From positions 85,002,001-85,066,000 of the forward strand of contig OZ024746.1 of NCBI GenBank assembly GCA_964016885.1: a DNA stretch of 64,000 nucleotides, read 5' to 3'. Below the pieces are notes generated by a model, which was not told where the DNA came from, did no database searches, and saw nothing but the letters and a program-made list of their open reading frames with translations. How positions within the stretch are numbered: position 1 is the first letter of the stretch; every line of letters begins with the position of its first letter. Origin of the DNA: Eledone cirrhosa. Its lineage: Eukaryota. Of the stretch, positions 14,276 to 63,039 are shown one piece after another. The position numbers and the translations under genes are program-made.

Positions 14276-14863
14276 GGGAGACATGATATGAACGTTAAAA
14301 CACACTTGTGAATAGTGCAGTTTTAAATCAACATATGAAAAGTAGTTTTAGATTGATGTGTGATATTGGGAAAAAAATTGAGGGGTGGGGGTGGAAAGGA
14401 TGAAAAAGAGGAGGAGATGAGAGTAAAAAGTGGAGGGGGAGGAGTATAATGAGGAAGGATGAGATAGGAGGAGAGATGGGTGATAGAGAGAGAGAGATAG
14501 CTTTTATAACTGAGAAAAATATATTGTTTTACATAGAGAGGTTGAAAAACCATTGGAAGATAATATATAAATTAAAAGAATTTGAAAATTAACGAAGAGA
14601 AAAATTTAGAATAATGTTAAATTAAGGTTTGTATATTTAAGGGTTTAATAATATGTGCGATGAAAAGAAATTGTTAATTTGTATTAAGAATAATATTTAA
14701 GGGTTTAATAATATGTGCGATATCTGCATTGCTTTATTGTACTACAATAAAACTCACCTCCTACATATATACATATATATATACCTAAAAAGTAATTCAA
14801 ACACTCATATATGAAAAAACAACCTGATGTGAGAAAAACCACAGACCCTCCATCTCAACTCTA

Positions 14864-14899
14864 CTTTTGAAAAGCAGAAGAACTGCGAAACCGGTAAAG
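14864..14899 (+). ncRNA. Variant/degenerate minimal HHR (Penelope pLTR-like)
   Basis: ctt-TTGAAAA-gcag.aagaa.ctgc-GAAA-ccgg-TA|aag, followed by AATAAA. The core deviates from CUGANGA. Confidence 0.55.
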
Positions 14900-15089
14900 G
14901 AACCAAATAAATATATATATATTTTATTTAAAATAAGACTCCAGTTGCATTTTCGATTTCATCTTTTTTTCTTTATACTTTCACTCGTGTAGGACACCTC
15001 GGTTATTTTTCATTTTGTAAAAAAACCTCAATTTCTAATATATATATACGTGTGTGTGTGTGCGTACAAACAAGCATTCACATACGATT

Positions 15090-23364: not shown

Positions 23365-24716
23365 TTACAGTTGTTGTTGTTGTTGTTGTGACACAATGTG
23401 GTTCCTCTTGTTACAGTTGTTGTGACACATAATGTGGTTCCTCTTGTTACAGTTGTTGTTGTTGTGACACATAATGTGTTTCCTCTTGTTACAGTTGTTG
23501 TTGTTGTGACACAATGTGGTTCCTCTTGTTACAGTTGTTGTTGTTGTGACACATAATGTGGTTCCTCTTGTTACAGTTGTTGTTGTTGTGACACATAATG
23601 TGGTTCCTCTTGTTACGGTTGTTGTGACACATAATGTGGTTCCTCTTGTTACAGTTGTTGTTGTGACACATAATGTGGTTCCTCTTGTTACAGTTGTTGT
23701 GACACATAATGTGGTTCCTCTTGTTACAGTTGTTGTTGTTGTGACACATAATGTGGTTCCTCTTGTTACAGTTGTTGTTGTTGTGACACAATGTGGTTCC
23801 TCTTGTTACAGTTGTTGTTGTGACACATAATGTGGTTCCTCTTGTTACAGTTGTTGTTGTGACACATAATGTGGTTCCTCTTGTTACAGTTGTTGTTGTT
23901 GTGACACACAATGTGGTTCCTCTTGTTACAGTTGTTGTTGTTGTGACACATAATGTGGTTCCTCTTGTGACAGTTGTTGTTGTGACACATAATGTGTTTC
24001 CTCTTGTTACAGATGTTGTTGTTGTGACACATAATGTGGTTCCTCTTGTTACAGTTGTTGTTGTTGTGACACATAATGTGTTTCCTCTTGTTACATTTGT
24101 TGTTGTGACACATAATGTGGTTCCTCTTGTTACAGTTGTTGTTGTGACACATAATGTGGTTCCTCTTGTTACAGTTGTTGTTGTGACACATAATGTGGTT
24201 CCTCTTGTTACAGTTGTTGTTGTTGTGACACATAATGTGGTTCCTCTTGTTACATTTGTTGTTGTGACACATAATGTGGTTCCTCTTGTTACAGTTGTTG
24301 TTGTTGTTGTGACACATAATGTGGTTCCTCTTGTTACAGTTGTTGTTGTTGTGACACATAATGTGTTTCCTCTTGTTACATTTGTTGTTGTGACACATAA
24401 TGTGGTTCCTCTTGTTACAGTTGTTGTTGTTGTTGTGACACATAATGTGGTTCCTCTTGTTACAGTTGTTGTTGTTGTGATACATAATGTGGTTCCTCTT
24501 GTTACAGTTGTTGTTGTGACACATAATGTGGTTCCTCTTGTTACAGTTGTTGTTGTTGTGATACATAATGTGGTTCCTCTTGTTACAGTTGTTGTTGTGA
24601 CACATAATGTGGTTCCTCTTGTTACAGTTGTTGTTGTGACATAGCGTGGTTCCTCTTGTTACAGTTGTTGTTGTTGTGACACATAATGTGGTTCCTCTTG
24701 TTACAGTTGTTGTTGT
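23365..24716. repeat. Minisatellite: 27-bp core + variable (GTT)n + GTG, roughly 35 units
   Basis: Unit gtg-acacataatgtggttcctcttgttaca-(gtt)2-5, embedded in a GTT-rich region. Confidence 0.97.
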
Positions 24717-49630: not shown

Positions 49631-49647
49631 TCATCTACCCAGTCTAT

Positions 49648-51322
49648 CTACCCAGTGCCATAATGCTTCACCCTAGTTCCCCAGTTCCATAGTGTGCCAC
49701 CCTAGCTTCCCAGTGCCATAGTGTGCCACCCTAGCTTCCCAGTAACATAGTGTGCCACCCTAGCTTCCCAGTAACATAGTTGTGTCACCCTAGCTTCCCA
49801 GTGCCATAGTGTGCCACCTTAGCTTCCCAGTAACATAGTGTGCCACCCTAGTTCCATAGTGTGTCACCCTAGCTTCCCAGTAACATAGTGTGCCACTCTA
49901 GTTCCATAGTGTGTCACCCTAGCTTCCCAGTTCCATAGTGTGCCACCCTAGCTTCCCAGTAACATAGTGTGTCACCCTAGTTCCATAGTGTGTCACCCTA
50001 GCTTCCCAGTTCCATAGTGTGCCACCCTAGCTTCCCAGTAACATAGTGTGTCACCCTAGTTCCATAGTGTGTCACCCTAGCTTCCCAGTTCCATAGTGTG
50101 TCACCCTAGCTTCCCAGTAACATAGTGTGTCACCCTAGTTCCATAGTGTGTCACCCTAGCTTCCCAGTTCCATAGTGTGCCACCCTAGCTTCCCAGTAAC
50201 ATAGTGTGTCACCCTAGTTCCATAGTGTGTCACCCTAGCTTCCTAGTAACATAGTGTGTCACCCTAGCTTCCCAGTAACATAGTGTGTCACCCTAGTTCC
50301 ATAGTGTGTCACCCCTAGCTTCCTAGTAACATAGTGTGTCACCCTAGCTTCCTAGTAACATAGTGTGTCACTCTAGCTTCCCAGTAACATAGTGTGTCAC
50401 CCTAGCTTCCTAGTAACATAGTGTGTCACCCTAGCTTCCCAGTTCCATACTGCGGCACCCTAGCTTCCCAGTAACATAGTGTGCCACTCTAGTTCCATAG
50501 TGTGTCACCCTAGCTTCCCAGTTCCATAGTGTGCCACCCTAGCTTCCTAGTAACATAGTGTGCCACCCTAGCTCCGCAGTGCCATACTGCGGCACGCTAG
50601 CTTCAAAGTGGCATATTTCACCACACTACCTCCTCATTGCCATACTTCGCCACCCTAGTTCCATATTGCCATACTGTTTCACCCTAGCTCCCCAGTTCCA
50701 TAGTGTTCCGCCAGAGCTCCGCAGTGCCATACTGCGACACCCTAGCCCCGAAGTGCTGTATTTGCCACCCTATCTCCCCATTTCCATAATGCGACATCCT
50801 AGTTCCATATTGCCATACTGTGTCACTCAAGCTTCCCAGTGCCATACTGCGTCACCCTAGCTCCGCAGTGCCATACTGTGGAACCCTAGCTTCAAAGTAC
50901 CATATTTTACCACACTATCTCCCCATTGTTAGACTACGACATCCTAGTTCCATATTGCCATACTGTGTCACTGAAGCTCCCCAGTTCCATAGTGTGCCAC
51001 CCTAGCTCCACAGTACCATAGTGCGGTACTCTAGCTCCGAAGTACCGTATTTTACCACCCTACCTCCGCATTGCCATATGTTACCATCCTATCTTCCCAG
51101 TGCCATACTGTCCCACCCTAGCTCCCCTGTACTATAGTGTGCCACCCTAGCTCCACAGTGCCATACTGTGGCACTCTAACTTCAAAGTGCCATACTACGT
51201 CACCCTATCTCCTCATTGCCATACTGCCCCACCCTAGCTCCATATTACTATTCTGTCACTCAAGCTCCCCAGACCCACAGTTTTCCACTCTAGCTCCGCA
51301 GTGCCATACTGCGGCACTCTAG
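49648..51322. repeat. Minisatellite of 29-bp and 21-bp units with higher-order structure
   Basis: catagtgtgccaccctagcttcccagtaa (29) and catagtgtgtcaccctagttc (21). The diverged right part has ~290-bp periodicity (cttcaaagt at 50601, 50890, 51180). Confidence 0.95.
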
Positions 51323-61450: not shown

Positions 61451-61837
61451 ACCAAATAGAGACAGGATTACAATGGAAAAACAGAAAAAAAGGTCCAGTA
61501 AAGATGCAAAAAAACATATTTATATCAGTATAAATATGGTACCAGGAAAAACAGGAAGAAGTGGTCAGAAGAAGAAATGTATTGTGTGTACAATTTTTAA
61601 CACATGTTTCTGTACAATTACATAACCATCTGCATGCGCTGACTGCATTATCCGATGCTCAATTGTATGCATTACGTTTCAGTTACTGCACATCATCAGA
61701 AAGAAGTTAGCAGGGAGAAAGAAAAAATGTGTTATACTCTGAGGTGTGTACCACATTTCTGCAATAAGCATTACTTACTGCTGACAAAGCTGAAGTACAA
61801 ATAACAGAAATAGTAAGCAAAGAATTATATATATATA

Positions 61838-62041
61838 TAACAAAGGAATTGTGGTAAGGAACCAGATGGACCATAACACACCAGAGTACTCAATACTTAG
61901 GGTAGTAGAGTGGGAAATAGGAAAAAGTATGACCCCGACGGCAGAGCTCAAGCCGTTTCGACGGCTATTTCTGGACGACTATTTCAGTCCAGAAATAGCC
62001 GTCGAAACGGCTTGAGCTCTACCGTCGGGGTCATACTTTTT

Positions 62042-62045
<4 letters not shown>
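61838..62045 (-). mobile_element. Fold-back + tail element, family A copy 7
   Basis: Tail plus hairpin ~61918-62045, with (TA)n on both sides. Confidence 0.9.
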
Positions 62046-62133
<88 letters not shown>

Positions 62134-62147
62134 TATATATAGAATTG

Positions 62148-62225
62148 ACTCCCTGATGAAGAAAGGAATTCTCCATGGTTTTGAACACTATTTATATCCC
62201 CTTTCAGAAACTAATTAGTTGGAGT
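62148..62225 (+). ncRNA. Type I hammerhead ribozyme, copy 1 of the tandem pair
   Basis: actcc-CTGATGA-a.gaaagg...cctttc.a-GAAA-ctaattag-TT|ggagt. Perfect stem I and palindromic ACTAATTAGT. Confidence 0.8.
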
Positions 62226-62669
62226 GAAACTTAAGTAAGTAAGTTAATTATTATAATTTTCTTATTTTACGTCTTTCATATAATTGTTCTACATTTTTGT
62301 ATTGAACCCCAAAGTTACTAAGACAAAACCTATATCTTGCTAGCATAAGTATACTTCTGTATAAATATGTTGGTAGATATACTAATTCTTTATAATTATC
62401 TCAAAATTATTTGTTGAGCAAAAATTTGCCTGAATTACTGCTATGATTCATAGTAATAGTTTGGCTACTGTCTTTTTAACACCCCACTCCTCACTGATTA
62501 ACCTCGGTGTCACGTGATTGATTCTTTTGAATTTGCCACTGACCGGGAAGGTAGTGAAATTTTCAGTGTCTTGAAATTTAGTCCGCGCTTGCTTCTTTTC
62601 CATTCACTGAATTATTTTTGTTTGAGATCCCTGTGTCCGCCTATCGCCAGCGATCTTAGCAGAGAATTG

Positions 62670-62747
62670 ACTCCCTGATGAAGAAAGGAATTCTCCATGG
62701 TTTTGAACACTATGTATATCTCCTTTCAGAAACTAATTAGTTGGAGT
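62670..62747 (+). ncRNA. Type I hammerhead ribozyme, copy 2 of the tandem pair
   Basis: Same fold as copy 1, with a perfect gaaagga / tcctttc stem II base. Confidence 0.8.
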
Positions 62748-63039
62748 GAAACTTAAGTAAGTAAGTTAATTATTATAATTTTCTTTTTTACGTCTTTCAT
62801 ATATATATATATGTATGTATGTATATATATATATATATGTATTTTTTTTCGCGAGTCAGTTCTTTTGTTGTTACGGACTCCGCGGCTGAATTACCGGCCG
62901 CTATCTTCAATTTGCAAAGCCCTTTAAACTGTATGTTATTACTCTGATGTTTTATACCTTATCGAGTGCTTGGCTGCACTTCTGAATGCATTCGTCGGCT
63001 TAGCTGCGGCTCGAGCTTCGAACATGGTGTACTTCCATT

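Follow-up and report, generated by a model that had tools for sequence, protein, structure and literature searches.

What does it mean when a short stretch of genomic DNA carries two nearly identical hammerhead ribozymes in tandem? Such a pair occurs in a stretch of 64,000 nucleotides from Eledone cirrhosa (assembly GCA_964016885.1, contig OZ024746.1, positions 85,002,001 to 85,066,000 of the forward strand), which is referred to below as the window and in which positions are counted from its first letter. A preliminary description of the locus proposed a retrozyme, a non-coding retroelement whose tandem hammerheads release monomers that circularise. The question is whether the pair is a self-contained unit of this kind, and what was copied when it was inserted. 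The answer reached here from genomic sequence is that the locus is a truncated copy of an abundant hammerhead repeat, likely inserted by the enzyme of a Penelope-like element (PLE), which made more than one round of a single RNA of unit length, probably circular.

The insertion occupies positions 62141-62803 of the plus strand. Its direct repeats (62141-62282 and 62663-62803, about 141 nt each) are spaced by 522 nt and are 97.9% identical, with two substitutions and one indel, and each contains one type I hammerhead. The anatomy of hammerhead 1 (62148-62225) comprises stem I (ACTCC/GGAGT, 62148-62152/62221-62225), the core CTGATGA (62153-62159), stem II (GAAAGG/CCTTTC, 62161-62166/62200-62205, 6 bp with a long insert), GAAA (62207-62210) and stem III (62210-62219), with additional A residues at 62160 and 62206 and a GUU triplet after which, at 62220, cleavage is predicted. 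Hammerhead 2 (62670-62747) has the same anatomy, with cleavage predicted after 62742. Stem III of both is ACTAATTAGT, a perfect palindrome. A strict hammerhead descriptor recognized these two sites in the window and none in each of 100 local shuffles. The predicted monomer (62221-62742, 522 nt) is structured and lacks a coding frame; no frame longer than 58 codons was found between the hammerheads. Direct repeats of about 140 bp with an intact hammerhead in each, GUU sites separated by exactly 522 nt, an interval free of open reading frames and a palindromic stem III had all been claimed in the preliminary description, and they are borne out.

The window copy is a plain single arm. Its 5' truncation point is position 443 of the unit, with numbering from the cleavage site; from there it crosses the two predicted cleavage sites and ends at a site termed A, which gives 1.27 units in total. 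Upstream, it is bordered by a (TA)n/(GA)n target tract (62046-62140), and downstream, by a (TA)n tract (62800-62840). The latter runs on from the TATA of site A, and a target duplication cannot be read. The copy differs from the commonest letters of its own group at 10 of 522 positions, and no tRNA was found near the element. Three contig sets from one sample contain the repeat family and have loose TA ends at 62282. The locus is one 5'-truncated insertion among thousands, not a designed pair, and its two hammerheads result from the partial tandem (pseudo-LTR) arrangement that Penelope-type reverse transcription produces. The retrozyme proposal survives for the repeat, which is non-coding, has a head-to-tail period of 507-571 nt, and keeps its core and covarying helices across subfamilies, but not for the window pair as a self-contained two-hammerhead unit.

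The surroundings contain other structures. An unrelated head-to-head insertion adjoins the element at 61830-62046; it is palindromic over about 125 bp, with its centre near 61980, and its left arm extends about 90 nt further before the TA tract than the right one, which looks like the same combination of a short and a long end as that described below, in another family. At least 13 other hammerhead-like cores were noted in the window (4758, 5005, 13504, 13515, 14267, 20141, 29838, 41829, 56048, 56063, 60669, 61446, 61699); they belong to several short families, some form inverted pairs, and several have a mismatch at the base of stem II. Minisatellites are present at 23376-24716 (period about 42 nt) and at 49644-51239 (about 29 nt).

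The extra A on either side of the base of stem II makes the hammerhead motif atypical. It gives an A·A mismatch at the window locus and C·A in other subfamilies; among 102 parsed motifs, 68 had A·A and 31 had C·A, which indicates a family trait rather than decay. A mismatch at this position is described for one axolotl retrozyme family in the available text of PMC7229834 and bioRxiv 10.64898/2026.07.22.740005. Rfam returned no family at the gathering score in the window, and no hammerhead at E values up to 10 over 61800-63000, probably because the long stem II and the mismatch defeat the models. The active fold is predicted to lie 2.5 kcal/mol above the local minimum-energy fold. For the palindromic stem III, the predicted energies are +1.5 kcal/mol as a hairpin and -9.0 kcal/mol as a two-copy duplex. 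Animal hammerheads have been reported to work as dimers when stem III is unstable as a hairpin (PMC4209133, in the part available), and by these energy models, dimeric cleavage through the palindromic stem III is plausible.

The repeat is abundant in the 3.0-Gb genome. The 3' half of the hammerhead gave 9,522 exact matches, so its copy number is at least 9,522; other exact patterns gave 5,020 matches (the block before the end), 1,329 (one young subfamily) and 4,494 (an internal 18-mer from a conserved block at 62508-62527), and all reversed controls gave 0. A similarity search with the element yielded 2,679 candidates, of which 40 were scored. The 44 complete units collected measure 507-571 nt and fall into seven groups at 90% identity, with identities down to 68%. 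Their longest sense-strand ATG frames span 16-66 codons, and tblastn with 14 PLE frames detected no PLE coding in the unit (best E 0.59). Units are arranged head to tail with up to six hammerheads per arm, so that the longer tandem arrays considered in the preliminary description do exist, with up to eight complete units per insertion. Mobility is evident from a near-identical young subfamily that sits at dispersed loci. That the family is a non-coding hammerhead repeat mobilised by a PLE is very probable.

The positions at which copies end are informative. In a sample of 110 arms from 68 loci, taken in order along one chromosome, 103 arms ended at one of two sites: 49 at site A, about 62 nt past the cleavage site, and 54 at site B, about 174 nt past it; seven ended elsewhere. 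In the window, site A (unit position 58-62) lies with a conserved block at 62256-62282 and recurs at the end of the insertion at 62800-62803, and site B (unit position 170-174) corresponds to 62390-62394, the two being separated by a 112-nt "tail" (62283-62394). Ends at A and B lead into (TA)n, sometimes after a short (CT)n, whereas 5' ends are scattered and the length of the repeat varies between loci. A head-to-head inverted arm was present in 41 of the 68 loci. One arm ended at A and the other at B in 36 of these, one end could not be resolved in five, and no A+A or B+B pair was seen. An earlier, partly overlapping set enriched for close relatives (36 inverted insertions) comprised 25 A+B, two A+A and one B+B pairs, with eight unresolved. 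Partial tandem, 5' truncation, an inverted arm and an optional tail are thus all present in the family.

None of the 110 arms ended within 10 nt of the predicted cleavage site, which was crossed intact 118 times in 103 arms. The 5' ends of 16 of 103 arms lay just downstream of this site, a 1.9-fold excess (p=0.016, uncorrected) that is no larger than the excess at unit positions 435-500. The signal was strong in similarity-ranked loci and weak in the position-sampled set, and it was not counted as evidence of cleavage. The pattern of DNA ends is thus no demonstration of cleavage in vivo.

Comparable ends are found in a protein-coding element of this species. The locus L086 (G000:C1:145,868,500-145,877,500, minus strand) contains a full-length coding PLE unit of 4,979 bp with a 938-codon RT and GIY-YIG frame. 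A cysteine motif precedes the endonuclease, as in the Neptune or Nematis type by the description in the available part of PMC8557442, and the named relatives of the genome's PLE protein are from bivalves (47-48% identity). The hammerhead of L086 is minimal, with its C3-G8 pair replaced by U-A, and a related PLE family has GCAA in place of GAAA. Copies of the L086-type coding element stop at +82 or +150, counted from their hammerhead, within (TA)n, and three inverted insertions of this type combine an end at +82 with one at +150. The window itself contains, at 14786-15044, a 3' fragment of the L086 family (92% identity) that terminates at the +150 site in TA. The Poseidon PLE of the anole has been shown in vitro to initiate reverse transcription at two internal positions past its hammerhead; its tail is the interval between these positions, both target strands are cut and extended, and the protein is predicted to be a dimer (PMC11167929). 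The accessible text of PMC3846280 and PMC8557442 describes inverted PLE arms of which one bears a tail. By analogy with these systems, the rule of one A and one B end in TA targets is read as a Penelope signature, as in the coding element of the same genome.

Which autonomous element drives the family was approached by sampling 35 GIY-YIG loci from 150 scored matches, out of 10,596 candidates, and no sequence common to the unit and an autonomous partner was found in these loci. The coding PLE unit showed no DNA similarity to the 44 monomers at E<1. Among the 360 flanks of 181 arms, a single one has a match to a PLE protein, which begins 287 nt outside the arm's end, and none runs straight into PLE coding sequence. 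The absence of sequence in common with the sampled PLEs and the PLE-free flanks indicate a self-standing passenger rather than the stump of a sampled coding element. Two candidate links were set aside. A 21-nt match at unit positions 177-197 lies within stem I of another family's hammerhead and was taken as chance, and when the pattern kept stem III but allowed a shorter stem II, it had 34 matches, almost all of them apparently deleted family members according to their listing.

How does the family relate to known hammerhead elements? Like the animal non-LTR retrozymes, as they are presented in the available text of PMC7229834 (Cervera and de la Pena 2020) and bioRxiv 10.64898/2026.07.22.740005 (Li, Clavereau and Pollet 2026), it consists of non-coding units that follow each other head to tail, each with a single type I hammerhead; it also shares with them low GC, a copy number in the thousands, a structured monomer, a short palindromic stem III and coexisting PLEs. 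Its unit length of 507-571 nt exceeds the 150-450 nt given in the portion of PMC7229834 at hand and is within the 51-972 nt of bioRxiv 10.64898/2026.07.22.740005. As those two sources describe them in part, animal non-LTR retrozymes form long satellites, and circles and cleavage have been demonstrated for them, whereas the window family consists of dispersed short arrays, and its cleavage and circles are predictions. In the same portions of these reports, the link of retrozymes to PLEs rests on co-occurrence and repeat similarity, the mobilisation of circles by PLEs is offered as a hypothesis, and fixed internal end sites, TA targeting and inverted arms are not described for retrozymes. As far as the accessible accounts of the endonuclease-bearing PLEs go (anole Poseidon, PMC11167929; Adineta Penelope, PMC3846280), the family has in common with them the pseudo-LTR, 5' truncation, a head-to-head inverted arm, a tail that one arm may carry, a pair of internal start sites past the hammerhead and AT-rich targets. 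It differs from them in having no ORF, a tail of 112 nt instead of 30-40 nt, up to about six units per arm, and a longer stem II with an inner hairpin. The autonomous PLE identity itself was rejected, as the unit has no RT and GIY-YIG frame.

The non-autonomous members of the Chlamys PLEs, MRC1 among them (Craig et al. 2021, PMC8557442, as far as its available text goes), are likewise non-coding passengers, with pseudo-LTRs, multicopy insertions arranged head to tail and a bias towards microsatellites. In the same text, the Chlamys clade lacks canonical hammerheads, unlike the window family, and its passengers generally resemble the 3' end of their autonomous partner, a resemblance not found for the window family among the sampled PLE loci. 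Plant LTR retrozymes (PMC7229834 and bioRxiv 10.64898/2026.07.22.740005, in the parts available) also carry two hammerheads in direct repeats around a non-coding interior, and are characterized by type III hammerheads, true LTRs, a primer site, a polypurine tract and duplications of 4 bp. This class is excluded for the window element by its type I hammerheads and by a repeat length that varies from locus to locus. On sequence features, the family combines those of animal non-LTR retrozymes and of non-autonomous PLEs and can be assigned to these known groups as a further member. In the literature, we found no report of cephalopod hammerhead retrozymes, nor of this family or its end signature in retrozymes, although supplementary species lists may already include such families.

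The predicted RNA is structured. The compact monomer fold suggested in the preliminary description is supported by z scores against shuffles of -4.6 (linear) and -4.8 (circular), with the reverse strand also reaching -3.2, and the predicted linear fold pairs its own two ends. Stem II is paired in 15 of 15 aligned sequences, with compensatory change at two of six pairs, and in the whole structure of this alignment the 23 compensated cells exceed those of all 500 shuffles, which ignore relatedness. In a consensus fold of eight units (some rows incomplete at the end), compensatory change affects 16 of 117 pairs in several helices. The core motif CUGAUGA was part of none of the patterns used to draw the compared loci; relative to the window unit, 3.3% of its sites are changed, compared with 10.3% for the whole unit.

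Two internal signals deserve attention. CACTCC (62485-62490) is exact in 29 of 44 monomers, and in the consensus fold, it is a possible alternative partner of the GGAGUG strand of stem I; such pairing could hold the ribozyme off. The longest block common to all seven subfamilies (62508-62527) contains a CACGTG palindrome and, beside it, what we take to be a CCAAT-like box on the opposite strand. Similar boxes were found upstream of the hammerhead in four coding PLE loci. Motifs of this kind make the block a possible internal promoter. If so, monomer release would need the block and two hammerheads downstream of it, about 1.5 units. The window copy has 1.27 units and lacks the upstream copy of the block, so that a monomer from it would likely need read-through from the host; the copy is more likely a daughter than a source.

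The remaining issue is the template. A cleaved monomer that was simply read a single time cannot have been the template, because the arms begin past the cleavage site and run through it unbroken. Within the subfamily to which the window copy belongs (111 segments, 40 loci), a rare allele was shared in 14.8% of cases between passes of the same arm, in 10.4% between inverted arms and in 1.6% between loci. A set of 20 young loci, chosen for having several hammerheads, provided 44 units and 506 clean columns. Over these columns, units differ on average by 1.07 positions within an arm (28 pairs), by 0.52 between opposite arms (23 pairs) and by 7.11 between loci (895 pairs). In the 13 loci with at least two complete units, 37 minor alleles occur in every unit, ten of them in no other locus; 23 alleles occur in only some units, and none tracks unit rank. 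An example is the young insertion L180 (G000:C1:120,073,500-120,080,600), with four hammerheads on one arm and six on the inverted one, in which all eight complete units share one allele. The number of hammerheads per arm declines smoothly (30, 15, 8, 3, 0 and 1 arms with one to six, first 100 matches). Junction crossings were exact over 12 nt in 173 of 210 cases, with one deletion at the site, in a sample partly drawn with a junction-spanning pattern and thus biased towards clean junctions. Indels are rarer at the ribozyme junction (0.3% per base) than in the rest of the unit (2.0%). The shared haplotypes and clean crossings are most simply read as repeated copying of one unit, as on a circle, and a circular template is the fairly probable choice. 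Two arrays (L009:1428-2682 and L011:843-2273) switch subfamily; a switch at the cleavage site was considered for them, and both switches proved to be internal (unit positions about 240-305 and 422-431). Together with the 23 partial alleles, they indicate that template switching or DNA recombination also occurs.

A passenger could also be copied without any circle, from uncleaved linear multimers transcribed from long, recently homogenised arrays, with the hammerhead trimming ends or rarely active. We consider this reading rather unlikely. Several points weigh against a circle: the base of stem II is mismatched and the active fold is not the minimum, the hammerhead of the anole PLE is dispensable and uncleaved RNA is its main template in vitro (PMC11167929), eight of nine frog retrozyme dimers gave no cleavage in vitro (bioRxiv 10.64898/2026.07.22.740005), and the coding unit has no DNA similarity to the 44 monomers. 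The anole result also favours linear multimers. The 118 intact crossings fit an uncleaved template, arrays with up to six hammerheads per arm could serve as masters, and a largely similar haplotype pattern would be expected if uniform young arrays were read into linear multimers. One array (L051, two differences in 509 and many private alleles) could be a local DNA duplication, and the mild excess of 5' ends past the site would fit linear RNAs with a cleaved 5' end, although it is matched at 435-500 and fails correction for many bins. Against linear masters, each round of 5' truncation would shorten the arrays unless length were somehow restored. Moreover, no allele tracks rank in the 13 multi-unit loci, and many haplotypes each occur as uniform multi-unit insertions, which implies frequent passage through one unit.

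A single unit could equally be read repeatedly if the cleaved linear monomer were held end to end by stem I, as a nicked circle, and the enzyme jumped the nick. Uniform haplotypes are explained as well by this as by a closed circle, the predicted fold does pair both ends, and the internal subfamily switches in two arrays show that template changes or recombination happen. Template jumps are usually imprecise, however, whereas the junction has fewer indels than the rest of the unit, and both observed switches lie away from the cleavage site; a nicked template is accordingly improbable to us. The alternative raised against the retrozyme at the outset, in which the repeats are merely what is left, as pseudo-LTRs, of a coding PLE after loss of its internal part, can draw on the architecture and hammerhead position, which match PLE pseudo-LTRs, and the family may have arisen in this way long ago. 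For the present family, it is largely refuted and we give it very little credence. The interior is itself present in thousands of copies (the 4,494 matches of its 18-mer), has diversified into about seven subfamilies with covarying helices, and is not similar to sampled PLE DNA or proteins, and none of the 360 flanks runs straight into PLE coding sequence.

With repeated copying of a circle as the preferred reading, a cycle can be proposed. Transcription of longer copies, perhaps driven by the conserved internal block, would come first. A monomer would then be cut out by two hammerheads, which probably dimerise via the palindromic stem III, and it would be ligated. The PLE protein, probably also a dimer, would nick (TA)n on one or both strands, and reverse transcription would start inside the RNA at A or B, one site per strand. 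The enzyme would then circle the template through the religated junction until falling off, and the cDNA ends would join the target or each other, which would give direct or head-to-head inverted insertions. Copying of a circle back to DNA is also the cycle proposed for animal retrozymes, according to the available text of PMC7229834. The full statement, that the genome records in this family how a circle made by a ribozyme underwent target-primed reverse transcription of the rolling-circle type, with a dimer priming both strands at two fixed sites for up to six rounds, is in our view evenly balanced between true and false.

The class of element is known, and the value of this locus is that of a test system rather than a surprise. 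A signature shared with a coding element, a very young subfamily and start sites defined at the level of the base make two questions testable, namely the role of PLE hammerheads and whether PLE enzymes copy circles. Studies of PLE-based insertion would also gain a compact template in an RNA of half a kilobase whose start sites are defined. If the rolling-circle reading is true, cis signals (two start sites, a possible promoter and a ribozyme-blocking helix) would be mapped within half a kilobase, and the family would provide direct evidence for the so far hypothetical step by which the circles of animal retrozymes return to the genome.
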